Source of the DNA: an uncultured bacterium
GTDB taxonomy: Bacteria; Zhuqueibacterota; QNDG01; DSAB01
Direction of reading: 5' to 3'
DNA length: 64,000 nt
Assembly: GCA_964537715.1 (NCBI GenBank)
Contig: CAZIAH010000003.1
Coordinates: 15,331 to 79,330, forward strand
A program made the position numbers and the translations under genes. Within the stretch, counting starts at the first letter, position 1, and each line of letters begins with the position of its first letter. Of the stretch, positions 4,685 through 45,800 are shown piece by piece. A model generated the notes under the pieces. The model was not told the DNA's origin. It did no database searches and worked only from the letters and a program-made list of their open reading frames with translations.

Positions 4685-6184
4685 ATGGCAATCAATACCT
4701 CTTCCGAAAGAAAACTGTTTTGGTATGCATTCATTTCCTTTACGATCTGGTCGGGAATCATATTTTTTTCAAACCACTATTTGCCCATGGTCGATTTGCC
4801 TCAACACGCCAGTCAGATTTCTATTTGGATGAATATGAATAATTCTGACTATCCCTTTTCAAATCTATTTGAATACAATTGGTTTACCCCTTACCTCGTC
4901 GGATACAGTATCATTCGCGTTCTGACTTTTTTAATGCCTGTCCATATGGCTATTAAAATTGTTATTTTTATAGCATCAATCGCTTTTGTGTACGCATGCT
5001 GTTTGCTGCTTGACATTCATTCAAAAATACAATGGGCGGCGCTGCTGGCTTTTCCGTTAATTTTTAATTTTAACTTCTACTGGGGTTTCGTAAACTACAT
5101 TGTCGCCATTCCAATTGGCTTATTTTTTATTGTCATTGCCAAAAATTTTATCCGTGATTTAACACCAAGAAAGGGATTCATATTATTTCTTCTATCCATC
5201 CTTTTGTTTTTTGCACATGTCTTAATTTATCTATACTGCATGTTCCTTATATTTTTAATGCACCTTATTTATTTTCGTGGATGGAAACAGACAGGCAGAT
5301 TGATACTTACTTTCCTCCCTTCATTCATCATCACAATTCTGTGGTATTTGTATCAAATAAAGTATACTCCACAAGTCACTTTACACCCACAATTCCTATA
5401 CGGCTTATTCAGACTAATTAAATATCCTTCTATTTTGCTTGGCAGCATGCACAAGCAACTCATCCAACAAATAGTGATTACAATATTATTGTTTATAACA
5501 CCACTAATCGCATTTAAAAAAATTCAAGGACGATTGTCTGCATTATTTATAGCAACATTATTCTTTTATTTCTTTTTACCCCATCAAGCCTTTGGGACCT
5601 ATTTCCTTTATCAAAGATTTGCCATATTTATTTTTCCGTTCTATCTTTTATCCATCCAATCGGAGTACAAGAACAGTCGCCATAAGTTACTGCAAATCAT
5701 ATGCATCCTCCTCATCAATGTCTATTGGCTGCATCAAACGGATAAACAATTCACTTTATTTAATTATGAGGCAGGTTATTATACGCAGATTGAAAAGGAA
5801 ATCCCATCACACAAAAGGGTGTTATCCATGATATATCTCAGTGATTCTATTTTTTTAGATCATGGCCCCTACTTTCTTCACTTCCCAACATGGTATGCAT
5901 CCAACAGATCGGGGGTTGTGGACTTCTCCTTTGCCTATTTCTTTCCTGAACTGATCCATTATAAAAAAGGACTTTACCCAAAAGCCGATCCATATTTTGT
6001 ATGGCATCCCAATATCTTCAAATGGGAGGATCATAGTTTCTATGATTATTATGTTTTAAAATTACCTTATGGTCATGAAGCGATGACAGAATTCCCATAC
6101 CCGAATGACAACAAACTTGTATTGGTAAAAAACATAGAAAATGCATGGTATCTATTTAAGAGGATTGAAAATGAAGAAGAATAA
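4685..6184 (+). CDS. Polytopic membrane protein (about 11-12 TM helices) with a roughly 130-aa C-terminal soluble domain; candidate GT-C-fold polyprenyl-phosphate-dependent glycosyltransferase
   Basis: Highly hydrophobic F/I/L-rich ORF in a low-GC island. The architecture (TM bundle plus a C-terminal periplasmic-like domain) and the adjacent GtrB-like GT2 gene suggest a GT-C partner. No family-specific motif was recognised. Confidence 0.45.
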   Translation: MAINTSSERKLFWYAFISFTIWSGIIFFSNHYLPMVDLPQHASQISIWMNMNNSDYPFSNLFEYNWFTPYLVGYSIIRVLTFLMPVHMAIKIVIFIASIAFVYACCLLLDIHSKIQWAALLAFPLIFNFNFYWGFVNYIVAIPIGLFFIVIAKNFIRDLTPRKGFILFLLSILLFFAHVLIYLYCMFLIFLMHLIYFRGWKQTGRLILTFLPSFIITILWYLYQIKYTPQVTLHPQFLYGLFRLIKYPSILLGSMHKQLIQQIVITILLFITPLIAFKKIQGRLSALFIATLFFYFFLPHQAFGTYFLYQRFAIFIFPFYLLSIQSEYKNSRHKLLQIICILLINVYWLHQTDKQFTLFNYEAGYYTQIEKEIPSHKRVLSMIYLSDSIFLDHGPYFLHFPTWYASNRSGVVDFSFAYFFPELIHYKKGLYPKADPYFVWHPNIFKWEDHSFYDYYVLKLPYGHEAMTEFPYPNDNKLVLVKNIENAWYLFKRIENEEE

Positions 6185-7956: not shown

Positions 7957-10900
7957 TTACTTCATGAGTACCATTTTCTTCACATCGACAAATCGTTTCT
8001 CTTTTTCTTCTCTGCTTTTTATTTCAATCCGATAAATATAAATTCCCGTTGCGACTTTTTGACCGGAACCATTCCGGCCGTCCCAGATTACATGATGATA
8101 ACCGGCTGGCTTCATCTCTTGAACAAACTCACGGACTACCTGTCCTTTTATATCATAAATCACCAATTTCACTTCGGACGGCTGGGGCAGATGATACTCG
8201 ATTCTGGTTTCGGGATTGAATGGATTGGGATAGTTTTGAAGCAGGGCATACTCTTCGGGGATCCCCGATCTCTGATCCACAACACCTACTCCTTCTGAAA
8301 TATGAACACCAATCGGTCTGGAATACAATGTTAAATCTGTAACAATGGTATTCGTGATCTGACATACATAAGATCCGGAATCGGATTCTGTTGCCGATTC
8401 TATCACATAAGCTAAACTGTCCGCATCCGTAACTTCTTCACCATTTTTGAACCATTGATACACATTGGCCGTACCACCTACTTCGACTGATAAGATTATA
8501 GAAGAACCGACGTCTATCGTTGTATCCTGCTTTTCCCCCACACTATCCTGGGGCCAATAACTAAAATTGGGAATTCGAATATTGGGCTCGATATCTTCGA
8601 ATGTCAGCCGGTTGTCTTCTGCTGTCAGATCCGTCAATGTAGGAATAGAAGATAAATCCGGCAAACCGGTAAACTGATTTGAATTGATATAGAATCTTTG
8701 CAGTATGGTTAAATCTGTAAACTGACTTGGTATACTGCCTTCTAAATGATTCTGATGAATGTAACAAAATTGAAGTGCTGTACATTGACTGATTTCCTCA
8801 GGAACCGGTCCTGTGAACTGATTATAAAAAAGTTCTAATTGATACAATTGACTCAGGTCTCCGATCTCGGAAGGTATTGAACCTGAAAGCTGGTTGTTCG
8901 CCAATCTCAATATTCTTAATTTAGAGAGATTACCAATTTCCTGAGGAATTTCACCGGTTAACTGGTTTCCGTCCAGATATAAAAAGTATAACTCCGTCAA
9001 ATTGCATATCTCAGGGGGGATGGAATCTGAGAGTTGATTGTTATTGAGATACAATCCTACCAGATTGGTGCAATTCCCGATCTCAGGAGGAATGGGACCA
9101 TTCAATTCATTTCTGTCCAGATAAAAATCTGATAAATTGGGTAATTTGCCAATCTCAGGAGGTATCGATCCGGTGAACTGATTATTGCCCATATAGAGAT
9201 ATTCCACACTGGCCAAATTTCCAATCTCTGGTGGAATCTCACCTACTAACTGGTTATCGGAAAGATATAAATAGGTGACTGCTGTTAAGTTCTCAATCTC
9301 AGGAGGAACGGTTCCATTAAGATTGTTGTTATCCAAATCTACAATTTTAACACGTTCATCTTCAACTGTGATACCGAACCAGGTATCAAGCGAACCTGCC
9401 AGCCAGTTTGTGTGATTTGTCCAGTTTGTACCGTCGGTGCTATCATAAAGTGTAACAAGTGCGAGAGAATCTTGTTCGATATTTCCAGGAATTTTAACTG
9501 TTATAGTTGTTGTATGAGAATAGAGAGTTAATTCAGTAGCCACACTATTTGTGATTTGACAGACATAACTGCCCTCATCTTCAATGGTTGCGAAATTGAT
9601 TGTATATGTATCGGAAACAGCTCCGGAAAGGATGGTCTGATCGTGCAGCCACTGATACTGATTGTTTACGCCTCCCACATCCACAATAAGTGGGAAACTG
9701 GCACCGTAATCAATCGTTGTATCCTGGGCTTCTCCGACACTATCTTGGGGTGCATAGAAAAAAGCGGGAATGGTGATATTGGGTTCAATATCCTCGAATG
9801 TGAATCGATTATCTTGTGCGTAAAGAGTATGTAATTCCGGAAGTAAAGAAAGATTCGGCAGTCCATCCAATTGGTTGTAATTAATACGAAGCGTTTTCAG
9901 TGCAATAAGATTGGTAAATGCATCCGGAACCGCACCAGCCAATTGATTGTCCGTTAAATTGATATAAGTCGCTTTTATCAGATTGCCCATTTCTGAAGGG
10001 ATCGAACCTGTCAATTCATTACCGTCAAGATAGCATTGTTTGACTTCAATTAGATTGCCGATTTCTTCGGGGATCGAACCATCAAGAGCATTGTTGTCTA
10101 AAATCAAATGGGTAAGACTGGTTAGATTACCAATTGCAGGCGGAATAGAACCAGTAAGCTGGTTGTTATTCAGATACAGCGATGTCAATTGGATTAGATT
10201 ACCAATCTCAGCTGGAATCGTATCTCCCAGTTGATTGTTGTCCAAATCCAAAGACGTCAGTTCGGTCAAATCGCCAATTTCAGGAGGAATGATTCCGTCT
10301 AAATTGTTAAACGCTAAAACGATTCGACTGATTCTATCGTCCGAAACCGTAATCCCGTACCATGTGAGTACCGAACCCGAGAGCCAGTTATCATTGTTTG
10401 TCCAATGAGCTCCATCCGTACTGTTATACAACGCAACGAGAGCAAGCGAATCTTGCTCAAATTCCGGATTTGCACCAACCACTGTTACATGAATTGGACG
10501 ACTGTAAATTGTCAGTCCTGGAACCACGGTATTGGTAACACGACAGATATAATCACCTGCATCAGCAGACGAGACATAACCAATTGTATACTCATCCGAT
10601 GTGGCTCCCGGAATCATCGAATACCCGTTGAACCACTGATATTGATTACTGGCTCCTCCGACACTTACCAAAAAGGAGAGGCTAGTCCCATAGGTTACGG
10701 TTGTATCCTTTTCTGTTCCGACACTATTCTGGGGAGTGTAATCAAAATTGGAAATCATAATATTCGGTTCCAGATCCTCAAATGTGAACCGGTTATTATA
10801 GACAGAAAAGTAGCTCAAATCTGGCAAAGAGGACAGATCCGGCAATTCATCAAGCTGATTATAATCGACATAAAAAGACGTCAGCTTCTCTAGATTTGTA

Positions 10901-12030
10901 AACGTACCTGGCACCGCACCTGTTAACTGATTGTTGCCGAGATCTAAAAACATCATATTCGGTAAAAATCCCATTTCCTCCGGAATAGCTCCTGAAAATT
11001 GATTATGCGCAAGATAGAGCGACGCAAGTTGCGCTAATTTTCCAATCTCCGCTGGAATGGAATCAGAAAGCTGATTCAAACTGATATTTAAATAGGACAA
11101 ATTGGTCAAATCCCCAATTTCAGGAGGAATCGGACCTTCCAACTGATTGTCATTGAGATACAAGGATAACAAAGTTGTCAGATTCCCGATATCAGCAGGT
11201 ATTGTACCTTCAAATTGATTATAACTCAAATCGAGTGTTTGAATACTTACCAGATCACCAATCTCTGGAGGAATAGGACCGGAAAACTGGTTGTTATAGA
11301 AATAACAGTATATCAAATCATCTAGATTGCCAATCTCTGGAGGAATAGGGCTATTAAGCTGGTTATACGATAAATCCAGCACCATCAGATTGCTCAGGTT
11401 GCCAATTTCCTGTGGTATTTGACCTGTAAGCTGATTGCTATTTAAATAGATATCTTTGCATTGATCAAGATTCCCTATTTCAGGAGGAATGGAACCTGTG
11501 AGCTGATTTTCTGAAAGAATAAGTGTGATTAAATTGACAATATCCCCTATCCATAGCGGAATCGTTCCTGAAATCTGATTATCTCTCAATTCAAGGTGTG
11601 ACAAACGTGTTAAATTCTGGATTCCTGCAGGAATAGAATCGCCGAATTGGTTGCAATTCAAATACAAATTATTCAAGTAAATGAGATTACCAATTTCTTC
11701 AGGAATAGGTCCACTGAGTTGATTTAGACTGAGGTCCAGATAGGTCAGTGTATCCAGATCACCGATCTCTGATGGGAGAGTCCCCGTCAAGTTATTTCCG
11801 TGTAATTTTATTGAGGTCACCCGTTCATTCTCCACATCAATACCATACCAATCGGCCACCGGTCCAGTAAGCCAGTTATCTTTATTGGTCCAGTTGGTTC
11901 CATCGGTACTATCGTACAAAGCGACAAGTGCCAGAGAATCCTGCTCGAGAACTTGCCCTATTATATCGGAAGGATTTAAAAGAAGAATAACAACGAAAGT
12001 GGACAGCCAAGTAAAAGATTGCTTTCTCAT
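7957..12030 (-). CDS. Giant secreted leucine-rich-repeat protein. Three tandem modules, each an LRRNT-like cap plus about 10-12 plant-specific-type 24-residue LRRs plus an Ig-like domain, ending in a T9SS C-terminal sorting domain.
   Basis: Signal peptide. Repeats match LxxLxxLxLxxNxLxGxIPxEIGNL (e.g. LTYLDLSLNQLSGPIPEEIGNL). Caps EQDSLALVALYDSTDGTNWTNKDNWL...WYGI occur three times. Ig-like GDY-C-TN motifs (AGDYICRVTNTVV; GSYVCQITNS). CTD LLQNYPNPFNPETRIEYHL...IYIYRI. Strong RBS aaaaggagggggaaATG. Confidence 0.85.
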   Translation of the reverse strand: MRKQSFTWLSTFVVILLLNPSDIIGQVLEQDSLALVALYDSTDGTNWTNKDNWLTGPVADWYGIDVENERVTSIKLHGNNLTGTLPSEIGDLDTLTYLDLSLNQLSGPIPEEIGNLIYLNNLYLNCNQFGDSIPAGIQNLTRLSHLELRDNQISGTIPLWIGDIVNLITLILSENQLTGSIPPEIGNLDQCKDIYLNSNQLTGQIPQEIGNLSNLMVLDLSYNQLNSPIPPEIGNLDDLIYCYFYNNQFSGPIPPEIGDLVSIQTLDLSYNQFEGTIPADIGNLTTLLSLYLNDNQLEGPIPPEIGDLTNLSYLNISLNQLSDSIPAEIGKLAQLASLYLAHNQFSGAIPEEMGFLPNMMFLDLGNNQLTGAVPGTFTNLEKLTSFYVDYNQLDELPDLSSLPDLSYFSVYNNRFTFEDLEPNIMISNFDYTPQNSVGTEKDTTVTYGTSLSFLVSVGGASNQYQWFNGYSMIPGATSDEYTIGYVSSADAGDYICRVTNTVVPGLTIYSRPIHVTVVGANPEFEQDSLALVALYNSTDGAHWTNNDNWLSGSVLTWYGITVSDDRISRIVLAFNNLDGIIPPEIGDLTELTSLDLDNNQLGDTIPAEIGNLIQLTSLYLNNNQLTGSIPPAIGNLTSLTHLILDNNALDGSIPEEIGNLIEVKQCYLDGNELTGSIPSEMGNLIKATYINLTDNQLAGAVPDAFTNLIALKTLRINYNQLDGLPNLSLLPELHTLYAQDNRFTFEDIEPNITIPAFFYAPQDSVGEAQDTTIDYGASFPLIVDVGGVNNQYQWLHDQTILSGAVSDTYTINFATIEDEGSYVCQITNSVATELTLYSHTTTITVKIPGNIEQDSLALVTLYDSTDGTNWTNHTNWLAGSLDTWFGITVEDERVKIVDLDNNNLNGTVPPEIENLTAVTYLYLSDNQLVGEIPPEIGNLASVEYLYMGNNQFTGSIPPEIGKLPNLSDFYLDRNELNGPIPPEIGNCTNLVGLYLNNNQLSDSIPPEICNLTELYFLYLDGNQLTGEIPQEIGNLSKLRILRLANNQLSGSIPSEIGDLSQLYQLELFYNQFTGPVPEEISQCTALQFCYIHQNHLEGSIPSQFTDLTILQRFYINSNQFTGLPDLSSIPTLTDLTAEDNRLTFEDIEPNIRIPNFSYWPQDSVGEKQDTTIDVGSSIILSVEVGGTANVYQWFKNGEEVTDADSLAYVIESATESDSGSYVCQITNTIVTDLTLYSRPIGVHISEGVGVVDQRSGIPEEYALLQNYPNPFNPETRIEYHLPQPSEVKLVIYDIKGQVVREFVQEMKPAGYHHVIWDGRNGSGQKVATGIYIYRIEIKSREEKEKRFVDVKKMVLMK

Positions 12031-12222
12031 TTCCCCCTCCTTTTACTAAGACTAATAGAATAAATTACTAAAAATAAAGGTGTCAATATTCCTTTAGAAA
12101 GTCAAGATAAAATTTAATCACTAAATTACAGGAAAAATCAATTTATTCGAATGTATCCAAAATAAGCTTGACTCTTACTTTACAGAATGTTTAACTTTAT
12201 TAAATAAACAAGGAAATTTAAA

Positions 12223-12702
12223 ATGTTAAAGATAAAGAATTGTGTATTCATTATTGTATGTTCTTTCTTTTTATTTACATGTACAGGACCTTATACCATA
12301 CCAACACGACCGCCAAGATTTCAGACCCAAAAGCAGGCCAGGCTCTGGAATCACGCCCAGACTTTTCTTGGTGTACCTTATCGATTTGGAGGATCCAACA
12401 GAGCAGGAATGGACTGTTCTGGACTTGTTTTCCGGCTTTATAAGGATGTTTATAATATAGAGCTTCCCCACAGCACGACAGAATTATATCAACAAGGATA
12501 TACGATCACTCTGGGCGTCCTGGAAACTGGTGATCTTATATTCTTTCATGACGGTCAGAATCGGACTCCGGAACATGTAGGCATTTATCTTGGGAACTTC
12601 AGATTTATCCATGCATCCAGCCGAAGAGGTGTCATTGTATCAAAAATATCCGATCCATATTATCAAAAACGGATTTTGGGAGCAAGAAGAATTCGTAAAT
12701 AG
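12223..12702 (+). CDS. NlpC/P60 (C40) family peptidoglycan endopeptidase lipoprotein
   Basis: Lipobox-like LFTC; catalytic Cys in GMDCSGLVFRLY, His in EHVGIYLG, and FIHAS tail. Confidence 0.85.
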   Translation: MLKIKNCVFIIVCSFFLFTCTGPYTIPTRPPRFQTQKQARLWNHAQTFLGVPYRFGGSNRAGMDCSGLVFRLYKDVYNIELPHSTTELYQQGYTITLGVLETGDLIFFHDGQNRTPEHVGIYLGNFRFIHASSRRGVIVSKISDPYYQKRILGARRIRK

Positions 12703-12724
12703 ATTTAAGCAACTTATCTGAAGT

Positions 12725-13180
12725 TTACCATCGAGGCATTAACAGATCACCGATCTTTTCAAGATATTTCTGATCCACTTCATCAAAATCATTTTGCCGA
12801 TCGCTGTCCACATCGAGAACTCCGCGGATGGATTGATTTTGATCAAACAGAGGGATAACCATTTCGGATTTCGAATTGGGATCACAGGCCACATGCCCAG
12901 GAAATTGATGTACATCGGGAACGATTAAAGTCTTCTTTTTCTTGACACAAGTTCCACAAACCCCCTCCCCTATATCAAGAAACACACAAGCCGGAGCCCC
13001 CTGAAATGGCCCGAGTACCAATCGATTGTCTTTTATCAGATAAAAACCAACCCAGAAAAATCCGAGACGCTTTTTCAAAACAGCTGCGATATTGCCGAGA
13101 TCAGCAATGAAATCCCCGCCCTTTTCGAGACGGATTTCGATCTCCCGGAGTGCGGCAATGTATTTCTCTGTTCTGGTCAA
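12725..13180 (-). CDS. GAF-domain protein, free methionine-(R)-sulfoxide reductase (fRMsr/MsrC)-like
   Basis: About 150 aa GAF with conserved Cys pattern (GVCGTCVKKKKTLIVPDVHQFPGHVACDPNSKSEMVIPL), typical of fRMsr. Confidence 0.65.
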   Translation of the reverse strand: MTRTEKYIAALREIEIRLEKGGDFIADLGNIAAVLKKRLGFFWVGFYLIKDNRLVLGPFQGAPACVFLDIGEGVCGTCVKKKKTLIVPDVHQFPGHVACDPNSKSEMVIPLFDQNQSIRGVLDVDSDRQNDFDEVDQKYLEKIGDLLMPRW

Positions 13181-13186
13181 TTCTTG

Positions 13187-14089
13187 CTATCCCCGGACAA
13201 AAATATTTTTGATCACATGTCCGGCTATCTGGGGATTCTCCTTCATTCTCCGCATGCAATAGCCGTACCACTGCTCCCCGTATGGTACATAGATCCTGAG
13301 CCCATGTCCGTCGGCCACCAATTCATTTCTCATATTTTCAGTCACGCCTAAAAGCATCTGAAACTCGTATTGGAATTTGGGAACCCGGTATTCATTCAGC
13401 ATCTTGAGCGACCGGTTGACCAGCACCCGGTCGTGGGTCGCGATACCCGCATAGGATTTCGATTCGAAAAGCATCTTGACCAGTGCCATGAAATTATCAC
13501 GTATCTTTTCCCGATCATTGAAAGCGATTTACGGGGATTCATCGTAAATGCCCTTGCAGACCCGGATATTGGCAATACCGTCTTTGATCAACTGTTCGAC
13601 ATCGCCCTGACTGCGTTTCATATAGGCCTGGATTACCGTTCCCACATTCTTGTAATCCTTCCGCAGTTTTCGATAGATAGCGAGTGTATCATCCGTGCAC
13701 GTGGAATCTTCCATGTCGATCCGGACGAAATTTTTGACTGCTTCTGCTCTCTGGACAATTTCTTTCACATGCTCGTAGCATCGGTTCTTATCTAAACGAA
13801 GTCCGAGCTGTGTCAACTTCAGGGACAACGTTGCCTCAAGATTATTTTTCTGGATCGCATCCAGAACTTCGAGACACTGCATTCTGGCAATGTTCGCTTC
13901 CTCAAGGCTCGTAATATCTTCTCCAAGCACATCTATGGTCACCTGACACCCGATTTCGTTCAAGTCCTGTGTCTTGGCCACTGCACTGGACAGAGTTTTA
14001 CCGGCAATGTATCGGCGAGAGAAAATCCATATAAATGACTTCGGGAAAACCGGCATGACGCCGACCACCAGACGACTAAACCATTTCAT
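13187..14089 (-). pseudogene. putA: Proline dehydrogenase (PutA/ProDH family) interrupted by a single in-frame TAA at 13529-13531. The N-part (14089..13532) and C-part (13528..13187) are in the same frame.
   Basis: N-part ...IRVCKGIYDESP* is followed in frame by IAFNDREKIRDNF MALVKMLFESKSYAGIATHD...GLRIYVPYGEQWYGYCMRRMKENP (ProDH C-terminus). The likely true start is the ATG at 14089, ATGA-overlapping the upstream GT2 stop. Confidence 0.6.
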
Positions 14090-15030
14090 GAGCGTATTCC
14101 TTCCAACGGTTCTGTAATGGTTTGTTTTTTTAATGTCAATTGATAGCCTCGATAAATATGATAAAAGACAAGAAAATGAATAACGCTCCGGCGCATTGGA
14201 CGAGGAACTATCGGAATGATTGCACGGCTCCATTTTGCGAGCCAGGATTGTAAGAACAGCCGCAAAAATCGATTTTGAAACGAACCGGAAATCAACCGGT
14301 CGAATCGAAAAAGCTGCGTGAATTCGGGATATTTTTTTTGAATATAGGGAAGATTGATGCTTCCAAATTCTTCCATCTGACGAAAGTAAGTGGACAAATC
14401 TTTATTCAATTCTGAATATCCGACCGCCGATACATTGAAAATCACGGGGAGCCGGAATGTTTTCCACAGACGATAGGCAAATTCGGTATCGCCTCCACCA
14501 TAGGTGACCATGCTTCCATCCTGGCCATCAACCTGAACAAAGTAGTGACTTTCAAAAGCGACATTTTGCGTGATCAGATAGTAGGCAGGAATCTCATCTC
14601 CATTCTTATATTTATTCTTTCCCCGGTGTTGGAGATAATCGGAAAGGTAACTGGTTTTCGAATCGGTATAGACAACATCACCCAAAGAAATACAATTTTT
14701 GTTCTTCAGAAGTGTGAGATGTTTTTCGAGTAAATCCGGTGCAGGACGTATATCCGAATCGAACATAACGAGGTATTTCGACGTAATGTGTCCGAGCGCT
14801 AGATTCCTGGCTGGATTTCTTCCCTTGCGTTTCCCATCGGGATGGGTGAGCACTTTAAATTCGAACGGATAACGGGTTTCTGACAGATACTCCAGCGTTC
14901 CGTCAGTCGAACCATCCACACAGATCAGCAGACGGAAATCTTTCACAGTCTGCGCTTCAAATCCGGCCAAACAGCCTTCCAGTTCATCCAGATTGTTGTA
15001 GGTGGCTATGATAATATCAAACAGTGCCAT
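14086..15030 (-). CDS. Glycosyltransferase family 2
   Basis: DIIIATYNNLDELEGCLAGFEAQT...LICVDGSTDGT GT-A motifs. Confidence 0.8.
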   Translation of the reverse strand: MALFDIIIATYNNLDELEGCLAGFEAQTVKDFRLLICVDGSTDGTLEYLSETRYPFEFKVLTHPDGKRKGRNPARNLALGHITSKYLVMFDSDIRPAPDLLEKHLTLLKNKNCISLGDVVYTDSKTSYLSDYLQHRGKNKYKNGDEIPAYYLITQNVAFESHYFVQVDGQDGSMVTYGGGDTEFAYRLWKTFRLPVIFNVSAVGYSELNKDLSTYFRQMEEFGSINLPYIQKKYPEFTQLFRFDRLISGSFQNRFLRLFLQSWLAKWSRAIIPIVPRPMRRSVIHFLVFYHIYRGYQLTLKKQTITEPLEGIRS

Positions 15031-15123
15031 ATTACTCGATGGTTAAAAAAACAGCGTCCCTGATAGTCAGGATTACTCCAATTCTTGCTTCATCCTGAGC
15101 GCAGTCGAAGGATGATAAGTCGA

Positions 15124-16212
15124 TCAAACAAAATGATTCCCCAATGTCTTCCGATATACATCCAGCATCCTTTCCGCAACCCGGTTCCAGAGAAAATTTC
15201 TTTGAATGTGCTTTTTCAATGTATCTGTTTTCTGGCTATTTAAAGCCTTCTCGATTGCGGTACGAATAGATCGAACCGAATAGGGATTGACGTATTCTGC
15301 TTGATCCTCAAAATACTCCTGCGTGCCGCCGTGTGGTGTAATTACGATGTTCGCTCCGGCAAGGCCGGCCTCGAGTGCCGCGATTCCCGGCGTTTCGAAT
15401 TTGGACGGTAAAGCAAACACCCTGCATGCTGCATATGCCGACGCCAGCAGCGGAGAATCGTGATCGAGTCCATCGATGAGAATCAGATTTTTATTTTTTT
15501 TTGCCTCACTCAGACACAATTCGGCCTCCCGGGAAGACACGACCTGACCGATGATCACGGCAGGATGATCGATCCGGCTCAGCGCCCGAATCAGGGAAAG
15601 CACATTTTTTCGATCCGGACCGATATGCCCGACATTGAGAATAAAATCCCTGACTCCATATTTTTTTTGAAACAGTGCCGGATCAGCCGATAGAAATTGT
15701 TCCGACACTCCGTTTGGAATCCAGTGAATCTTCTCTTTCGGAACGCACAATCCCTTTTCGATCAAACGGGCTTCCGCCATCGTGTTCGGCATGACGGCTT
15801 CGGCCCAATGACAGATATCGCGGGGAAAATGCCAGTCCCACCAAATTCCCCGAATCATCTTTCGCATTCCTCGGTAAAGCACATTCGCGGAACGGATCAG
15901 ACCGGCGGAATGACGGCTATAAAAAATCGGCATGACGGCAAACTTGATGTTCCGATTTTTCAAATCCCTTGCAAGGTGAAAATTTCCCAGATTTGCCCCG
16001 AACAACTGGATGAGATCGCAATCCAGAACCTTCTCCTTTTCATCCCACATATCGAAATATCCGATTTCGACGCCCATGCGTCTTAGATGCGCCTTCGTTT
16101 CGACAATGGCCACATGGGGGCCGCCGTGCACAAACATCACGGATTGATAGCATGCAAAATTAATTTTCATGATTTCATTTTTCCGAAAATGTTTTCTATT
16201 CTGTAAATCCAA
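15124..16212 (-). CDS. Glycosyltransferase family 4 (GT-B, group 1)
   Basis: C-terminal PSKFETPGIAALEAGLAGANIVITPHGGTQEY E-x7-E-type motif. Confidence 0.75.
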   Translation of the reverse strand: MDLQNRKHFRKNEIMKINFACYQSVMFVHGGPHVAIVETKAHLRRMGVEIGYFDMWDEKEKVLDCDLIQLFGANLGNFHLARDLKNRNIKFAVMPIFYSRHSAGLIRSANVLYRGMRKMIRGIWWDWHFPRDICHWAEAVMPNTMAEARLIEKGLCVPKEKIHWIPNGVSEQFLSADPALFQKKYGVRDFILNVGHIGPDRKNVLSLIRALSRIDHPAVIIGQVVSSREAELCLSEAKKNKNLILIDGLDHDSPLLASAYAACRVFALPSKFETPGIAALEAGLAGANIVITPHGGTQEYFEDQAEYVNPYSVRSIRTAIEKALNSQKTDTLKKHIQRNFLWNRVAERMLDVYRKTLGNHFV

Positions 16213-17720
16213 AGACGCCAGAAATCCCGTCTCCTGACACCGGGAGAATGAACCGGGATTGATTGATCCCGATTTTTCCAGACAAGTTTGCTTATATCAA
16301 TCGTTTTCTGAAAAGGAAACACAGTGTATTTTTTGTCAGGAGAAATCGCTCTGAGATAAACGGAACCATCTCCATTTCGAACATCCAAAATTAGTTTTTG
16401 ATTTCGAACCACCGGACTCCAATCAATGCGGGCTCTCCGTTTCCACCAAGTGCTGTAATTCCCCATGCTCATTGATGGAATGTTTTGTTGCTGAATTTCA
16501 CGGAATATCTCTTGAAAGACAGCGAAATTGCGATGTCCCGGATGGTGATAGATAAAAATGGGCTCTTCTAACATAAATTTCTGTTGGATTACATTTTGAT
16601 AATACGAAAGATACTGCTGCTTCGTATGTCTGGCCCGTCGGAGATTGCCGATACTGACTGGATGAATCGGCACCTGGAGAACCGTAGAAAAGGAATTATT
16701 CAAATAGGGATAAAATGGGAGATCGTCGTAGTCCAATCCAAATTCAGAGGAATATTCGAATTGCATCTCCTGAACAACTTTTCCCAAAGCCGGATTCCAT
16801 TCGCCATACGGCGCCGCGTATCCCTTTGGATGAATCCCTGCATTGCGAAGAATATTCAATCCCTCAACAATATTTTTTTTATTTGTTTGATAATCCGGAA
16901 AAATCCTGTGGCGGTAACAATGGTATCCGATCTCCTGATCCTTCATGTCGCGATAAAATCGAATCCAATTGTACTGGCTCTTGGTTTCGACAAACCAGGT
17001 GGCCGGAATGCGGTTCTTCTGGCAGAGAGAATAAAGTGTCTCGAGCTCCTGCTGCGTACCAAAATCAGTATCTACACGGAAAGAAAAGACGTTCTTTTCT
17101 CCATTGGGAAACTGCCAGAGATGAACAAACGGAACGTTGCGTCGGCGATAGAGATAAATCAAACACTCCTGAATGATGTGCCGGAGACCACCCTTTGAAA
17201 CCTTCGAGACTTTTTCCGAAGGCAGTCTCTTCCCATATTCGGAATGGAAATATTTTTGTCTAACATCCGCGCAAAGCAGTGACGCGATCAATCCTGAAGG
17301 CAGAACAACCACGTTTCCCTTGCCATAGGACAAAACACCAATCGCATATTTTCCCATCTGATTCCTGCAATGAGTGGCACTCTTTGGGACTTGCATCCGC
17401 CGAAAAAGATCGCAATCGAAGGAACGAGAAAAAAGCGGCCCTTCCTCTGCGTACAGTGTTTTCAGATAGACTCGCTTTACCTTCTGGGAAAGAAGGTGTT
17501 TGGCAGCATCGGCTTCGACAAGGATCGATCCGCCGTTATTCAGGTATTCGAGAATGTATTTTGTGTTCTGCTTCTTTCCGAAATAAGTAACGATCAATAC
17601 GACAAACGCATCCGTGGAAACGGATCGATCCATATTGATTTTTTCGAAGGGTACACCGATCTGCCCAAGAACAGTCTTCCAGCCCGGCGTCTCTTCCGAT
17701 ATGCCGATAGTCAATCTCAA
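16167..17720 (-). CDS. Polysaccharide deacetylase (NodB-homology) family protein with an N-terminal domain of unknown function
   Basis: FSFRVDTDFGT...ATWFVETK and HCYRH motifs resembling CE4/NodB. The start is uncertain (overlaps the GT4 gene by 46 bp). Confidence 0.5.
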   Translation of the reverse strand: MRLTIGISEETPGWKTVLGQIGVPFEKINMDRSVSTDAFVVLIVTYFGKKQNTKYILEYLNNGGSILVEADAAKHLLSQKVKRVYLKTLYAEEGPLFSRSFDCDLFRRMQVPKSATHCRNQMGKYAIGVLSYGKGNVVVLPSGLIASLLCADVRQKYFHSEYGKRLPSEKVSKVSKGGLRHIIQECLIYLYRRRNVPFVHLWQFPNGEKNVFSFRVDTDFGTQQELETLYSLCQKNRIPATWFVETKSQYNWIRFYRDMKDQEIGYHCYRHRIFPDYQTNKKNIVEGLNILRNAGIHPKGYAAPYGEWNPALGKVVQEMQFEYSSEFGLDYDDLPFYPYLNNSFSTVLQVPIHPVSIGNLRRARHTKQQYLSYYQNVIQQKFMLEEPIFIYHHPGHRNFAVFQEIFREIQQQNIPSMSMGNYSTWWKRRARIDWSPVVRNQKLILDVRNGDGSVYLRAISPDKKYTVFPFQKTIDISKLVWKNRDQSIPVHSPGVRRRDFWRLWIYRIENIFGKMKS

Positions 17721-19126
17721 ATAAAAATCCTTTTCAGATAACGGATTTCATCCAAACCAATGTTTCCCAGACAGACGATCAGAGGAACAGCAGCAGCCAA
17801 TGCAATGATCAATTTCACGGGAAAAATAATCCGGACATGAAAAAGCAGACACCATGACAAACATAACGTTCCCAGAGAGGGCAGCATCACGCTTCGGGTA
17901 AAATGCAGAACCACATGCTGTTTCAATGCCGCCAGCATGACGACGAGAGATGTGATTTCGAAACCGATCAGGGCAAACACCACACCGATCGATCCCATCG
18001 GTCTGATCAAAATAATGAGCATCAAAAAAAAGACACCCAATCCCCAGAGAAGCGATTTGGTATACACCTTCTCCTGTTCGATCCCGATCAGCGTAAACGT
18101 AAATACCGAATTGATCAATTTTAATACAAACAAAGTCACCATCACCTGAAAAATCGGAACGGCACCCACAAACGCTTCTCCATAAATTAACCTGACGAGC
18201 AAATCCCCGCTCAATACGGCAATCAGGCCAACCAGAAGAACAAATGCAGTGGTGAGTTTCAAGACATGATTGACATTCTCTTCCAGTCTTTCCGGAAATT
18301 GGCGAAAACAGCGGCTGATGTTCGGGAAAAAAACCGCATAAAAAATCCGATCAAATATCAACAGAAAAAAGATAAATTTGAATCCGGCGCTGAACAATCC
18401 GACATCCGTTCGGGTTACCACCAAACCCAGATAAATGACCGGAAATTGTGTCACGAACTGGGCAATGAGTGCCGCGATTCCAAGGGGGAATGCTTCCTTC
18501 AACAGGGAACGCACCTGCAATCGACTCCGTAGAAAATGAAAGGGAACTTTCTGGCTCTGAAATCTTATCCACAAATAAATCATATTGATTAGCATTCCGG
18601 TGACCCATGCCCATGCAACCCATACAATGTCCTCCGAAGTTTTCACAAATACCAGCAGAAAAGCAAGATAACAAATCATTCCCGCCAATTGTCCGCCGGC
18701 AATCGTTTTCAACTTTTGTGTCCCATGAAAAAACCAATCCAATAGAAAAGCTGCAGGAAAAACACCTAGCAAATAAATAGCGATCAAATGAAATAGATGA
18801 ATTGAAGTAACAAATGTTTTTACAATAATGACGCCTGCTGTATAGGCCGCAATGGAAAGAATCAGACGTCCACTGAAAATACTGATTGTCAAATGGCCGA
18901 CATCTTCACTCTTCGCCGCTACTTTTCTGGTACCTAAAACCGAAAGCCCGCTGTTTCCCACAATCATGCCATAAGAAAGAACGGCCAGACCAATATTGAT
19001 CGTTCCAAAATCCGAGGGACCGAGAATCCGCGCCAGATAGGCGACCGCCGCCATTCCGACCAAACGGCTAAGAGCATCTCCCGAATAAAGAAAGAGGATA
19101 TTTTTAAAATGGGCGGTTATTCGCAT
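17717..19126 (-). CDS. Wzx-like oligosaccharide flippase (MOP/polysaccharide biosynthesis protein family)
   Basis: 469 aa with about 12-14 TM helices; PST-family layout in an EPS gene context. Confidence 0.75.
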   Translation of the reverse strand: MRITAHFKNILFLYSGDALSRLVGMAAVAYLARILGPSDFGTINIGLAVLSYGMIVGNSGLSVLGTRKVAAKSEDVGHLTISIFSGRLILSIAAYTAGVIIVKTFVTSIHLFHLIAIYLLGVFPAAFLLDWFFHGTQKLKTIAGGQLAGMICYLAFLLVFVKTSEDIVWVAWAWVTGMLINMIYLWIRFQSQKVPFHFLRSRLQVRSLLKEAFPLGIAALIAQFVTQFPVIYLGLVVTRTDVGLFSAGFKFIFFLLIFDRIFYAVFFPNISRCFRQFPERLEENVNHVLKLTTAFVLLVGLIAVLSGDLLVRLIYGEAFVGAVPIFQVMVTLFVLKLINSVFTFTLIGIEQEKVYTKSLLWGLGVFFLMLIILIRPMGSIGVVFALIGFEITSLVVMLAALKQHVVLHFTRSVMLPSLGTLCLSWCLLFHVRIIFPVKLIIALAAAVPLIVCLGNIGLDEIRYLKRIFI

Positions 19127-20118
19127 GCAATCCCCAAAATCGCTTTCCTCAACCCATCCACTCTGCGTTGAAGGGGAAATTCATTGATAATGCGTTGACG
19201 GGCCAGATGTCCTTGTGAACCATTCATTTTTAAAGCGCGTTTCAAACCATCGACAAGCGCTTCCATGTCACCTAAAGGAACGATAAAACCCGTATCTCCG
19301 ATCGCCGTCGGAATGCCGTCCACATTAGTACCCACTGGAATGCAGCCGCACGCCATCGCCTCACACAGGGTATTGGGCAATCCTTCGGAACGGCTCGGCT
19401 GGCAAAAAACAGCGGCACGCTGATAATAGTCGCGCAATTCCGTCTGGGTCATTCTGGGCAGCAACGTCACATTTTCTGGTAATTGAAAACCCGCATTCTC
19501 CAACAGTTTGTTCTCGGCGCCGATAAAGAAAAAAGGAATATCAGACATTCTTTTCGCGGCTTGAAAAAGATAATCAATGCCTTTCTTTTTCAATCGCATT
19601 TCCGTATCAGAATGACCGACAGTCAAAATTATCTTTTCTTTCCGAAGCCCCGGTTCCCAAAAATAGGTATCAAACCCGAAAGGTAAATATTGGATATTCT
19701 CACCACTATAATTTGCAAAACATTTGGCTTTTTCTTTGAGTGAAGGTGCGACAACCAAAATCAAATCGGCTTTTGGAAAAGTACAGGTTAAAAGTTTGGA
19801 TTTCCAAGGAGTCAGCCAGATTCCATAATCAATTTCCGCCAGCGCCTCGGCATCCACACCGGCAAGCACGATAATGGATCGCTTTCGGAAAATTCTGGCT
19901 AATAAAACAGCGACAGCGCTATAAACCGAACCAAACCAACAAAACGCCACATCACAAAAAAGAATATTCCAGAAAATAAGAAAAACGGCTTTCAATCCAC
20001 TTGCGGTGAAACGGTTGACATTAAAATATTTTTTTAAAATTTGATAGTCTTTCTCAATGAACGAGGCATGAATTGTTGAAAAAAAGAAAACGCGTTTTTT
20101 CTTCTGTGTTTCCGACAT
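19117..20118 (-). CDS. Glycosyltransferase family 4 (GT-B)
   Basis: EGLPNTLCEAMACGCIPVGTNVDGIPTAIGDTGFIV motif. Confidence 0.75.
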   Translation of the reverse strand: MSETQKKKRVFFFSTIHASFIEKDYQILKKYFNVNRFTASGLKAVFLIFWNILFCDVAFCWFGSVYSAVAVLLARIFRKRSIIVLAGVDAEALAEIDYGIWLTPWKSKLLTCTFPKADLILVVAPSLKEKAKCFANYSGENIQYLPFGFDTYFWEPGLRKEKIILTVGHSDTEMRLKKKGIDYLFQAAKRMSDIPFFFIGAENKLLENAGFQLPENVTLLPRMTQTELRDYYQRAAVFCQPSRSEGLPNTLCEAMACGCIPVGTNVDGIPTAIGDTGFIVPLGDMEALVDGLKRALKMNGSQGHLARQRIINEFPLQRRVDGLRKAILGIACE

Positions 20119-20194
20119 TTCCGATTTGTTTCCTTAACCCAAGTGGAATGAACCGATTTAAATCATTGTCATTATCCATACCACCAAAATCCGT

Positions 20195-21118
20195 CTATTT
20201 CTTTTTACCCATCAATGTAACCATAATCGCCTTTTGAATATGCAGCCGGTTTTCCGCTTCATCGAACACAATCGAATGAGACCCCTCCATGACACCCTCG
20301 GTGATTTCTTCCCCGCGATGGGCAGGCAGGCAGTGCATCACTTTCACATTTGGCTTGGCCTCAGCCAATAATTTTTCGTTGACTTGAAAGTTCTTGAATG
20401 CTTTTTTTCTTTTCGCGGTTTCTTTCTCCTGCCCCATGCTGGCCCAGACATCCGTGTAGATCACATCCGCATTCCGGACGGCTTCCCTCGGGTCGTTCAG
20501 CACAACGACCTCACCCATTCCTGCTTTCTGTGCATCTTTCAAAACTTTTTTATCCGGATCGTACCCTTTCGGACAGGCAAGATAAAAAGAGAACTTCAAC
20601 CGGGAAGCCGCATTGATCCAGGAATTAGCCACGTTGTTGCCATCACCGACGAAAACCACTTTCACTCCCTCGATTCTTCCTAAATGTTCCTGTATCGTCA
20701 ATAAATCTCCCAAAACCTGGCAGGGATGAAATAGATCGGACAAACCGTTGACCACCGGAACCGAAGCATAACGGGCGAGTTCGAAGAGAATGTCGTGCCC
20801 GAATACCCTTGCCATAATCCCGTCACAGTACCGCGACATCACTCTGGCCACATCGGCCACAGACTCCCGTTTTCCCATGCCGATATCGGCGGGCGTCAAA
20901 TAGATGGCATGTCCTCCTAATTGAATCATGCCGACCTCGAAAGAAACCCGTGTCCTGGCAGAAGGTTTCTGAAAAATCATGGCCAGCGTCTGTCCTTTCA
21001 ATGAATGAGAGACCTTTCCTTTCTTTTGTCTTCCTTTTAATTTACTGGCCAATCGGAACAGATTGTCTATCTCGGCAGTCGTCAAATCCGTAATGGCAAG
21101 AAAATCCTTCTTCATCAC
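20195..21118 (-). CDS. argF: Ornithine carbamoyltransferase family (possibly an N-acyl-ornithine type as in Bacteroidota; SARTR instead of STRTR)
   Basis: SARTRVSFE carbamoyl-phosphate motif, DVWASMGQE, HCLPAHRGEE. Confidence 0.7.
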   Translation of the reverse strand: MMKKDFLAITDLTTAEIDNLFRLASKLKGRQKKGKVSHSLKGQTLAMIFQKPSARTRVSFEVGMIQLGGHAIYLTPADIGMGKRESVADVARVMSRYCDGIMARVFGHDILFELARYASVPVVNGLSDLFHPCQVLGDLLTIQEHLGRIEGVKVVFVGDGNNVANSWINAASRLKFSFYLACPKGYDPDKKVLKDAQKAGMGEVVVLNDPREAVRNADVIYTDVWASMGQEKETAKRKKAFKNFQVNEKLLAEAKPNVKVMHCLPAHRGEEITEGVMEGSHSIVFDEAENRLHIQKAIMVTLMGKKK

Positions 21119-25107: not shown

Positions 25108-25734
25108 TTAAACAATACGAGCTCTCTTAATTTCTTTCAATAATATTACATTTCCTGGATAATAATAATTATCAAAAAAACAATCACCAAAATTATCAAC
25201 AACAAAATAATACGCAAATGCTTGCGCGTTTGTTTGGCTTAGTTCTTCAATAAAATTATTGATTAGATTTTTTAAATCGTTTTTATCCTTTTTAGGAAAA
25301 TATGGAACTGCAAAACAAATTGCGAGTCTTCTTCCTTCATCAGATTTTAGTTGGATAGAACTTTTTTTCGCTAATAATAAAGAATCATTTAGTTTTTTCT
25401 TAAGCGATATATGAATACTCTTCCCCGCTGAAATCCAAACATGTTTGGCTTCGCCGGCAAATCCTTCTTTCCCGGCAGTAAAGTAAATATCACATCGTCC
25501 CTTTTTTATAGTTCCATCCGTTGCCCCTTTAATTGTAGAATATTCTTCAAGAGCTACATTTCCACTTTTCCATACTGCTGCAGCTAAAATGCTGATAGAT
25601 GCCCGTTCCTTGTACAACCACGAATATTCTTTTGTCTGAATGAAATATTCATCTTGTACAGATAACCAACTCTCAAGAATGGGTCGGATACTTCTAAGTT
25701 TTCCAATATATATGTCTTTTAGTTTATTCTTCAC
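25108..25734 (-). CDS. Hypothetical protein (208 aa), no recognised domain, in a low-GC insert between hflK and rpoN
   Basis: Long ORF in a roughly 30% GC segment; Lys-rich; no signal peptide seen. Confidence 0.45.
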   Translation of the reverse strand: MKNKLKDIYIGKLRSIRPILESWLSVQDEYFIQTKEYSWLYKERASISILAAAVWKSGNVALEEYSTIKGATDGTIKKGRCDIYFTAGKEGFAGEAKHVWISAGKSIHISLKKKLNDSLLLAKKSSIQLKSDEGRRLAICFAVPYFPKKDKNDLKNLINNFIEELSQTNAQAFAYYFVVDNFGDCFFDNYYYPGNVILLKEIKRARIV

Positions 25735-40967: not shown

Positions 40968-42812
40968 TTAAAACCAGTTCACAAGTCCGACATGCACCTT
41001 GCCGCGCAGCAAAGAATCGCCTGCTCCCAATCCGTAATCCACGCCGAACAATCCCAGACGCGTTTCGATGCGGATACCGAAACCATATCCGATTTTCGTG
41101 CCGTCGATTCTTCCTGCTTCTTTTTCCTTTCTCTGGTACATGCCTGCATCAACGAAAAGAAACACACGCGACCGCCTGCCCATCAAATAGCGATACTCAG
41201 AATTCAGCCAGGCAACCAGCGAACCCCGGAACATATCCTCGCCATACCCCCGAAGAGACCGGGCTCCGCCAAACCGGATTTGATCGCTGATCGGAATAAA
41301 GTCATCTCCGGTCTTTATTTCCGTTCCATGTATGCCAAAATAGAGTACTTGCCGCCCCCAAATCGGGAATGCTGTCTCTGCGTCGATATGAACCTGGCGC
41401 ATATCCACGTGGCGTTTCCATCCTTCCTGAAGCACGATAAAATCAGGACCCATATTTTCCTTTCGCCCAAGAGTGAGAGCCGTATAATATTGTACCCCTT
41501 TTCGAGGATTCCAGGGATCGTCCATCGTATTGTATCGAATAGAGAACGTGACTTTCCATGTGCTTGTCCGGGCCAGATCATAAAGCACACTCCCCAATGA
41601 ATCCGGTAAAACCGATCTCTGTCCCCATTTCATTCCCAGCGAAAGCGAAGACCAGGGCGCATACCGGATCGATATGCCCCAATCCCGTTCAATATAGGTC
41701 GTATCCCGAATTTCCTGCTCGAACCGGCCGCCGACGTGTAGCGGCCACTCGAACAGCCACGGTTCTTCATAACCGAAACGCATGGCCTGAGAATACGCAT
41801 CCTTTTTCTCCCAGTACACATCTAATAAACGTCCGGTACCCAAAAGATTCTGAAAAGCAAACTGAAGCCGGCCCGTCCAGTAACCCGATTTTTTTTCGGT
41901 TGGCGGCGGATTATATCCCACCACACCGTCAATTGAATTGGTGTTGCCTTCTTCCACACGGAAAGTTACGAATGCCCGATCCTGGAAAAAAGAAACATCC
42001 GGTTCCGACACCTTTCGAAAATAGCCCAATCTCTGAAGATTCTCTTTTGCGGATCGTATCTCGCGATGCCGGTATAGACTTCCCAATTTCAAACGAGTTT
42101 CTCTGAGAATAACATTGGATCGTGTGACACGGTTTCCGCGAACAGATAACCCATCGATATAAACCGGACGGCCTTTATCAATGGACACGACAATTTCCAA
42201 CCGGGGTGTGCCATTTTCATGTTCGATGGACAATTCCCGTATTTCTGCCTGACAGAGCGGATGTCCCCGGTCTTCCCAATAGGTGAGAATTTCTTCCATA
42301 TCCTGTTCGAACTGCAATGCACTAAAAACCTGGTTGATCTGCGTATTCATTAATTGTTCTATTGAATTCTGATCTTCTCTTCCAAGACCGACGAGATCAA
42401 TACGTCCGATGCGGACCTGTTTCCCTTCATGAATAGTGATGGTCAGATCGACCCGGCTGCTGTCGAAAGAATAAGTCGTGCTGAATGTATCGATTCCCAC
42501 CTCATAATACCCCTGGGTGTGATACCACTGTATCAACTTTTCGAGCGATCCATCCGGCCAGTCCGATGGCAGCGCAGTTGCTTTTTTTAGATTTAATTGT
42601 TCTAAAAGGATCTCTTTTCGAACTTGATGGTTTCCCATTAGTTCGATACGGCGGATCATCGGACGCTTCGATTGTGCAAAAATGCTCTTAGAAATAATAA
42701 TTGACAAGAACAGTATCGGCAAACAGAAAAGAAAATTTTTATTTCGAAACTGCCGCATCAGAAAAATGCCCTCACTTCCATCTGTCCGATTTGATAAAGT
42801 CGTTTGCGCCAC
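40968..42812 (-). CDS. Omp85-family outer-membrane protein (TamA-sized, POTRA plus 16-strand barrel)
   Basis: Signal peptide, POTRA-like N-terminal region, C-terminal beta-signal ...GLVNWF. Confidence 0.7.
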   Translation of the reverse strand: MAQTTLSNRTDGSEGIFLMRQFRNKNFLFCLPILFLSIIISKSIFAQSKRPMIRRIELMGNHQVRKEILLEQLNLKKATALPSDWPDGSLEKLIQWYHTQGYYEVGIDTFSTTYSFDSSRVDLTITIHEGKQVRIGRIDLVGLGREDQNSIEQLMNTQINQVFSALQFEQDMEEILTYWEDRGHPLCQAEIRELSIEHENGTPRLEIVVSIDKGRPVYIDGLSVRGNRVTRSNVILRETRLKLGSLYRHREIRSAKENLQRLGYFRKVSEPDVSFFQDRAFVTFRVEEGNTNSIDGVVGYNPPPTEKKSGYWTGRLQFAFQNLLGTGRLLDVYWEKKDAYSQAMRFGYEEPWLFEWPLHVGGRFEQEIRDTTYIERDWGISIRYAPWSSLSLGMKWGQRSVLPDSLGSVLYDLARTSTWKVTFSIRYNTMDDPWNPRKGVQYYTALTLGRKENMGPDFIVLQEGWKRHVDMRQVHIDAETAFPIWGRQVLYFGIHGTEIKTGDDFIPISDQIRFGGARSLRGYGEDMFRGSLVAWLNSEYRYLMGRRSRVFLFVDAGMYQRKEKEAGRIDGTKIGYGFGIRIETRLGLFGVDYGLGAGDSLLRGKVHVGLVNWF

Positions 42813-45800
42813 GGTTCCTTTCTGGCCCGGTAATTCAGTGTGACCATCACATGACCCGACACTTTATAGGTCATCAGAACGTTCCATCGGACTGTTCTTC
42901 CCGGCTGATCTCCTCCGAACATTTCGTAGGGCAAAGAGCGTCCCGAAGGTTCGGATCGAACTTCGCCCAATTCCAGTTCCGCACGAAGATGTCCTTTTCC
43001 TAAAAATGCGTAGCTGAATCCTGGAACGATAAAAAAGGAGACCGCTTCGGTTGTAGGACGGGGAACGAAATCCTTTGCAGTCTGGATTTTGCCCTTCAAT
43101 GCAATCTCGATTTTCTGTACGGGCCGATAGGAAGCCTCTACAGTCCAAAGATAAGATCGAATGCTTCGATCCGCATTGAATCCGCTTTGATACGTCTTGG
43201 TTTCTACATGTTTCTGGTATTCAAACAGCAACCCTATTTTTTTAAGAGGATTGCCCTTAATGCGTATTCCCTGCTCTGAAAAATGGCGAATCGTGCTCTC
43301 CTGTTCAAATTGATGGTTTTCCGAATCCTCCTGCCGGTATCTAAGTTTGATACTGTATTGACTTTTTGGGGGAGTATATTCCAGATCCTGATAATAGGAA
43401 AATAGTCCACTCACCAATGTGGTGTCTGCGCCCCATTGCGGACGAATCGCAGACCGGTTCACATGAATAAAATTCTGATCTTCATCTTTTCTTTCAATGC
43501 GAAAACGCGACAAACTTTTCAGCGAGCTGATCAATCTTAAAATTCCACGCGGTTTTTGCCACAATCTCGCGCTGTTCAAACGCAACTCCAGACCACCCTT
43601 CAATGTGTTCACAGGAAGAAAGGTTCCGGTTTGGAGAGTTCTGAAAATCACATCACCATCGGCATCGGGAACATACTCGTTCAAATATTCATCATACCGG
43701 TAATTTCCCAAACCTTCACCGACCTGAATCGTATCCTTGACCATTTGAGAAATCCGGGTGGACGAAAACTGATAGTTCAGGTTCCCATCCAAAAAGGAGC
43801 GGCCCGAGGAAAACCGCATTTTTACATCGGCCAGATCCGTTTTTTGATCTTCCTGGGAAGGATCGACATAATCCCGATTCCGGTGTGTTATCATAAAAGA
43901 TGTGGACAGATAATTCTTGCACTGCCACTCTAACTGTAGACGGTCGGTTTTGGCAAGAGAATTCTTTTCAAGAGTACTGAAAATATATTTCCGTTCGTCC
44001 CGGATCACTTCATCGATTCGAAGGCGGATCGATCGTCTTCCCAACCCAAGCTGCCCGGTCCATTCGTCGAACCGGAATCCGCTCAAAATGGAATCCGGGG
44101 ATTCCTCTTTTCGGTGTTCACCGTCATAGAGAACTACAGGATCGAAAATCCAGAATTTCGCTTTAATGGATCCGCGATGCCGAAGCCAGTATCCCCTCAA
44201 ATTGCTCCCTTTTTCGGATTCGATAAGTTCCGCTCGATACTGAATTTGTGGCAACTTTGATGGATGAAAATCGGTCTCGATCAGTTTCCGGTTCGATGAA
44301 TAATTCCCGCTCTTTTTAAAACGGCCCATTTCTCCTCGAAGAGACCACAAGTTGATGGGTTCGTAAAAAACCTCCAGCTCCTGAATCTGCTCTCCCCAGT
44401 AATCACCCTCTTCGATCCCCCACCGTCTTCCGTGTTCCACTTCGCTCATTCTGCCCAGAGACCGAAATTCGTCGTTCACCCGGTAGTATTTCGCCTCGAA
44501 ACCGAATCTTCCCAATGTCTGACCGAAAAGACCGACAGGCTGATTATTCATGCGAAGTCTGCCCTGATAGGCCAATCCGATATTATTCTGATCGTTTTTC
44601 GGAGAATAGAGATTCCGATCCTGGTCGCTCAGTGCAGCTTCACTCTCGAATATCAATCCCTTTCCGAGATCGACTGACGAAGCCACATTGAACATTTGAT
44701 GACGCTGCGCCAACGGCAGAAAAACCACCGGTGAATAATCCCCTTGTCCGGCACCTTCGTACCGATAGATGCCGTACCCCTGAAAAGAGTAATCTCCCTG
44801 TCCTTCTCCTACATACGAAAACCGGACAATATAATCTCCCTTTTCTGCACCGACATATTGATAATAGACCGCGCCCAGTGTATCGATTCGATCATAATAC
44901 CCCTGATTTTCACCCGCGTATTCCGCTCCCGAGACTCGGGCCGAATCGGAATTATCGCCGGCCTGTTCAAGCACGTTTTTATAAGTATCGGTTAAGACCA
45001 CATTTAGGGGATTGTCCTTGTCATCACCCTCCCGCAGAAAGGATGCCTTGAACCGAATGCGGTCGTTCCACAGAGTCGTATTTCCGGAAAACCCGTAAAT
45101 AGTTTTCTGAAACTGTTGATCCGAATATTCAAAATCGACCGTGATTCTCGAATCCGAAGTGACGAGTCGGTTTCGAGTAAACGTGATCTGACCGTTTCCG
45201 TATTCGATCACATAATCATTGTCTTCCCCCCGCGTCATCGGTTCTCCGTCTATCCAGACCCGTTCGGTTCCCGCAAGCACGATGATCTCCCGCTGACCTG
45301 CTGCGCCGGTCAACTGGTACGGCCCCTGATTGCCCTCCTGGCCGATAAAATGATTCGTGGTAAATTGACCCTTGGATGCCGCCACGGAAAACGAGAGAGA
45401 CCCGCGATCTGTATCGACGGTTCCCATCGCTCCCTGGAGCTTTCTCGAATAGGTTCCAAATTCCGATCCATCGACCCGATACACAAAATCCCCAAGTGTT
45501 GTTTTAAAATGAGGCATTTTAATATCGATAAAAACTTTATCAATCTCCTGAAGAGTTTGTGTATTGCCCTCGGGCTGAATAGGTGTGTTTTGGTCGGTCA
45601 GAGAAGCCACGAGTTCGACATTGGAGGCGATTTTACCCGACACCTGAAGCCGCAGTCCAGATTGAAGCCGCATCCCCTGATTTGTTCCGATGGTAATTCC
45701 CCGGAATATTGATCCGCTCGACTGCAGCTCTTCACCATAACTGGGTGTGGAAGAAAGAAGTTTGCGCACTCTTGTCTTGGGTGTTCCGGGTATGGACGAC

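Follow-up and report, generated by a model that had tools for sequence, protein, structure and literature searches.

In a single strain or population of an uncultured bacterium, the gene for a monofunctional, FAD-dependent proline dehydrogenase (ProDH) of the PutA/ProDH family appears to have been converted to a loss-of-function allele by a single, recent nonsense substitution, a reading to which we assign a probability of about 85%. The gene lies on the minus strand of the window (the whole stretch of 64,000 nucleotides that was analysed), where one-frame translation gives a single reading frame of 186 codons, one stop, 113 codons and the natural TAG (13189-13187). The premature stop reads TTA on the plus strand at 13529-13531, which is TAA at 13531-13529 on the minus strand, in the context ...GAT GAA TCC CCG TAA ATC GCT TTC AAT... 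of the coding strand and ...VCKGIYDESP-TAA-IAFNDREKIRDNF... of the protein. A preliminary description, made from the sequence, had proposed a ProDH interrupted by a single in-frame TAA on the minus strand, with the conserved C-terminus GLRIYVPYGEQWYGYCMRRMKENP; the interruption is borne out by a frame that is otherwise unbroken from 13187 to 14089, and the C-terminal motif is present.

A mechanical list of open reading frames (ORFs) divides the ProDH frame into two, 13529-14233 and 13187-13489, in the same frame. The start at 14233 was rejected as the start of the gene, since the position that begins MKWF... is the start in all homologues. The N-terminal fragment of 186 residues is recorded, as P0095, both from the 88,872-bp NCBI contig and from the Logan assembly, and the C-terminal ORF of 100 residues comes from the same two sources. 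The features of the locus are collected in Table 1.

Table 1. Features of the interrupted ProDH locus and its immediate neighbours, in window coordinates.
Feature	Position	Strand	Evidence or remarks
Proline dehydrogenase frame, interrupted once	13187..14089	-	300 codons + TAG; Pfam Pro_dh match spans the stop; aligns to PDB 2EKG, 4H6Q, 5M42
Premature TAA, codon 187	13529..13531	-	DNA alignment with L002 and L014; same TAA in Logan contig L001
N-terminal fragment, 186 codons	13532..14089	-	Retains DMED motif (residue 125) and CKGIY motif with conserved Lys (residue 179)
Residual downstream ORF, 100 codons from internal ATG	13187..13489	-	Carries ATHD (217), LLGV (246), YVPYG (267), RRMKEN (280)
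Lys191Asn (AAG -> AAT), window-specific	13517	-	14 nt past the stop; Lys in 107/115 homologues
Asn5Ser (AAT -> AGT), window-specific	14076	-	Asn in 113/115 homologues
ATGA overlap, ProDH start / GT2 stop	14086..14089	-	ATG 14089-14087, TGA 14088-14086
Family-2 glycosyltransferase (GT2), last gene of EPS-type block, upstream of ProDH	14086..15030	-	Pfam Glycos_transf_2 1.9e-20
GAF-domain gene, downstream of ProDH	12725..13180	-	Pfam GAF_2 5.5e-12; conserved neighbour in L003-L005

The identity of the gene is apparent when the two halves are joined with an X in place of the stop. The joined product gives one match to the Pfam family PF01619 (Pro_dh), which runs through the stop from residue 38 to 290, takes up profile positions 3-274 of 278 and has an E-value of 5.3e-30 (105.4 bits, where the cutoff is 27). 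It aligns gap-free across the stop to the enzymes from T. thermophilus (2EKG, 3e-48) and D. radiodurans (4H6Q, 5e-45), and without a break to 5M42, an agreement that cannot be chance. Like T. thermophilus ProDH (TtProDH; PDB 2EKG/2G37/5M42) and the D. radiodurans enzyme 4H6Q, to which its sequence identity is moderate, the window ProDH is a protein of about 300 residues (the solved enzymes have 312-327), and it is colinear with them over residues 24-292. The motifs common to the window ProDH and the solved enzymes, judged against the TtProDH paper (PMC5335563), are DMED, xKGxY with its conserved Lys, ATHD, YVPYG and the RRxxEN of helix alpha8. According to the same paper, Lys187 and Thr226/His227 (in the beta6-alpha6 loop) of TtProDH contact the FAD phosphates and are conserved in the family, and helix alpha8 starts with 288-RRIAERPEN. 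In the window, the flavin-contact residues and the Arg-Arg motif of alpha8 are all encoded (CKGIY at 178, ATHD at 217, RRMKEN at 280), as expected of a member of the Pro_dh family. Unlike in the solved enzymes, the frame is cut at codon 187, which limits the product to the first 186 residues. The locus is a ProDH gene by descent and, with its frame interrupted, not an intact ProDH.

What did the stop replace? In both of the closest intact relatives, which are metagenome contigs from the same species, codon 187 is AAA (Lys). One of these, L014 (JGI 3300057030), has 10 differences from the window ProDH in 903 nt (98.9% nucleotide identity), and the other, L002 (JGI 3300056903), is 96% identical. 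Because both have AAA at this codon, the lesion is a single A-to-T transversion on the coding strand, corresponding on the plus strand to an A at base 13531 of the window in place of the T of the relatives. The preliminary description had favoured a nonsense substitution over a frameshift and had listed codons that could give TAA in a single step; the unbroken frame and the relatives support the former, and AAA is among the ancestors on that list. It had also allowed that orthologues might end at ...YDESP, with a second gene initiated separately, and no orthologue was found that ends or splits there.

The wider family is intact as well. None of 18 related loci, translated straight from the DNA, has an internal stop, and of the 120 best homologues obtained by searching 5.8 billion proteins, 116 are 295-306 residues long. 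The stop falls eight positions C-terminal to the Lys conserved in xKGxY, and the residue found there varies among more distant homologues (n=115: E 64, D 17, S 13, A 7, K 6, T 5). The closest intact orthologues are metagenome proteins; the nearest named one among the matches listed, with 61% identity, is from candidate division KSB1. A 32-base stretch around the stop, with N at the mutated base, had no exact match in the genome and metagenome contig collections, which evidently do not include the window's species, and protein-guided scans of the contig collections returned only relatives of at most 66% identity, all of them intact. The TAA allele was met in one data set only.

Compared with L002, the dN/dS of ProDH is 0.11 (0.16 upstream of the stop and 0.07 downstream), a value that indicates that ordinary purifying selection acted on the gene during almost the whole period since these strains diverged; the neighbouring GAF gene gives the same value (0.108), and the end of the GT2 gene gives 0.37. 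The ProDH frame has no other premature stop and no frameshift. Because the pairwise dN/dS is this low and further lesions are absent, the lesion is dated as very recent. Polarisation with the three sequences assigns four ProDH substitutions to the window, all non-synonymous (Asn5Ser, Lys187stop, Lys191Asn and Val288Ile), and two window-specific substitutions were found in the flanking 674 bases. The ratio of non-synonymous to synonymous changes is thus 4:0 on the window branch of ProDH versus 4:2 on the tip leading to the intact L014, a difference that is not significant with so few changes. Taken at face value, the pattern would fit some relaxation of selection after the knockout, a signal that falls short of significance. 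Lys187stop (13531) and Lys191Asn (13517) are only 14 nt apart and could reflect one mutational event; by our own estimate, the probability that some pair among four changes in 903 nt would be clustered to this extent is about 0.19, which is not significant.

Is the stop present in the organism, or only in the data? The preliminary description had left room for a base-call error, and this alternative is weakened, not eliminated, by the finding of the same TAA in an independent assembly. The Logan contig L001 (SRR14802572) is 100% identical to window positions 10143-18003, a total of 7,861 bases that includes the TAA, and an artefact of the assembler is unlikely because an independent re-assembly agrees over this entire length. 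Since both contigs, from NCBI and from Logan, probably stem from one sequencing run, this agreement is a test of the assembler and not of a library artefact, or of which allele is in the majority at a polymorphic site. An error of sequencing, library or consensus, with the organism retaining AAA and the TAA occurring in the data alone, is unlikely, and is the alternative that holds up best. It would account for a one-base change in a gene whose remainder is intact and under purifying selection, and for an allele known from a single read set; moreover, all four window-specific changes are non-synonymous, which is what random errors would also tend to give. Against it stand not only the agreement of the two assemblies at every base, but also the lack of any other interrupted gene in the 64 kb, which indicates a consensus of high quality, and the fact that the assembly of SRR14802572 yielded no intact allele with an identity of 99% or higher. 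Logan unitigs drop k-mers that are seen only once, so that the T should be present in two or more reads. A literature search for SRR14802572 found no paper. On balance, we infer that the cells do carry the allele and that it is not confined to the reads.

A real TAA could still, in principle, be compatible with a working enzyme. The UAA might be read through or suppressed, or residues 1-186 and a product re-initiated at Met200 might together form an active split barrel. Both halves of the gene are undamaged, there is an in-frame ATG 13 codons past the stop, and a (beta-alpha)8 barrel can in some cases be rebuilt from separate pieces. If the TAA allele did still give some ProDH activity, it would be a natural two-piece or leaky (beta-alpha)8 flavoenzyme. 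The evidence from the locus and its relatives makes this very improbable. None of the relatives, even those of the same species, has the stop, so that nothing conserved points to a programmed event; programmed read-through was considered and set aside for this reason, and recoding is without support. TAA, including TAAA, is a standard terminator in the window; in fact it is the commonest stop, ending 22 of 51 long ORFs, nine of them as TAAA. The only tRNA in the 64-kb window is a tRNA-Lys(CTT), and no suppressor tRNA was found there; the analysis covered these 64 kb, and a suppressor tRNA or a second ProDH or PutA could lie elsewhere in the genome.

Re-initiation fares no better. No Shine-Dalgarno (SD) core precedes the internal ATG at 13489, and the sequence upstream of this ATG is the same as in the intact alleles. 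Such a core is present at roughly half of the window's well-defined genes, the true ProDH start (GGAAGGAATACGCTC-ATG) among them. A product started at Met200 would, in addition, drop residues 187-199. A naturally split gene was ruled out, there being no split orthologue and no SD core at the internal start, and the downstream ORF is most likely untranslated.

That TAA might be a sense codon under an alternative genetic code can be dismissed for practical purposes: nothing besides the in-frame TAA itself speaks for it, this is the one gene in 64 kb with an internal TAA, and TAA ends those 22 ORFs where Pfam domains are complete. Indeed, when 40 proteins of the window were scanned against Pfam, the domain matches were full-length wherever a family matched. 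A scan of the window for long same-frame ORFs separated by one stop returned three other minus-strand pairs in which both halves are called genes, and these control pairs, which together with the stop-codon usage rule out such a code, are unrelated complete genes: a Band_7 protein and an HslV-type proteasome subunit, a FabF-type ketoacyl synthase and an NMO-family protein, and an NHL-repeat protein followed by a large protein with no significant Pfam match.

With Lys187 (AAA) changed to TAA by the single A-to-T transversion, translation would stop after 186 residues, eight past the flavin-contacting Lys of CKGIY. Of the family motifs, Lys 179 (in CKGIY) is encoded before the stop, and ATHD (217), LLGV (246), YVPYG (267) and RRMKEN (280) are encoded after it. 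The truncated product would thus be missing the second portion of the (beta-alpha)8 barrel, which comprises the loop bearing Thr-His-Asp, strands 7 and 8, and the alpha8 helix, where the Arg-Arg motif is found. Since the Thr-His-Asp contact to the flavin phosphates and helix alpha8 would both be missing, loss of function is expected. Such a product could presumably hold neither the flavin nor proline, and this gene would no longer provide the initial step in the oxidation of proline. Loss of enzyme activity is accordingly what the sequence predicts.

The kind of event, a recent single nonsense knockout in one strain, is ordinary and already known. As in other strain-specific nonsense pseudogenes of bacterial populations, the gene carries a single premature stop with no lesion besides, the relatives from the same species are intact, and the long-term dN/dS is low; there is no difference in kind.

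The surroundings of the gene are in part peculiar to the species. The start of ProDH had been described as overlapping the last GT2 gene of an EPS cluster, and the same four-base ATGA overlap is indeed found in L002 (658/661) and L014 (528/531), and is confined to the window's species. Upstream, on the same strand, EPS-type genes for GT2, GT1/GT4, a polysaccharide deacetylase, a Wzx-like flippase and GT1 occupy 14086-20118, and beyond them, at 20195-21118, is a gene for an ornithine/aspartate carbamoyltransferase. Relatives with 57-66% identity have a different gene upstream of ProDH, and the GAF gene is kept directly downstream. In L004 (4099-6903), the orthologue of the carbamoyltransferase (69% identity) is found upstream of ProDH at a distance of just one gene; in the window (14086-21118), the two are kept apart by the EPS-type genes at 14086-20118. 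Because the distant relatives have another upstream gene, and the carbamoyltransferase is near ProDH in L004, the EPS linkage is species-specific and probably reflects insertion of the EPS block. ProDH is followed by the GAF gene at 12725-14089 of the window, at 6001-7384 of L003, at 6001-7376 of L004 and at 2282-3780 of L005, and the GAF gene is 62% identical to its counterpart in L004. This conservation suggests that ProDH and GAF form a conserved two-gene unit, down to 57% ProDH identity.

Co-transcription of ProDH with GT2, which the preliminary description had drawn from the overlap, is plausible on that basis. In a scan of 12000-15300, promoter-like sites occurred at chance level, with none between GT2 and ProDH, a result that is uninformative for co-transcription. 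Eight terminator-like hairpins were counted in the same interval, compared to 2.9 +/- 1.8 in shuffled sequences. Several of these are inside coding sequence, and none is obviously at the end of a gene except for a weak hairpin that separates GT1 from GT2 (15072-15058).

Several other features of the window deserve mention. A gene on the minus strand at 7957-12030 encodes a leucine-rich-repeat protein of 1,357 residues with three internal repeats of roughly 450 residues, in which the motif EQDSLALV..STDG..WTN occurs three times. The nucleotide alignment with L002, from the same species, ends at window position 12280, just before this gene, which seems, to judge from the alignment, to diverge much faster than its neighbours. 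No significant Pfam family was found for the long ORFs at 42758-46153 (1,131 residues), 4685-6184 (499 residues) and 50900-52705 (601 residues), or for three shorter ones at 710-1177, 25108-25734 and 49581-50366.

For annotation, the ProDH locus should be labelled as a ProDH pseudogene with an internal stop, and not, as in the automatic calls, as two Pro_dh proteins of 186 and 100 residues. Likewise, proline oxidation from this locus should not be assumed in a metabolic reconstruction of the genome. If read mapping confirmed the allele, it would provide a small example of the loss of proline catabolism at the level of the strain in an uncultured lineage.
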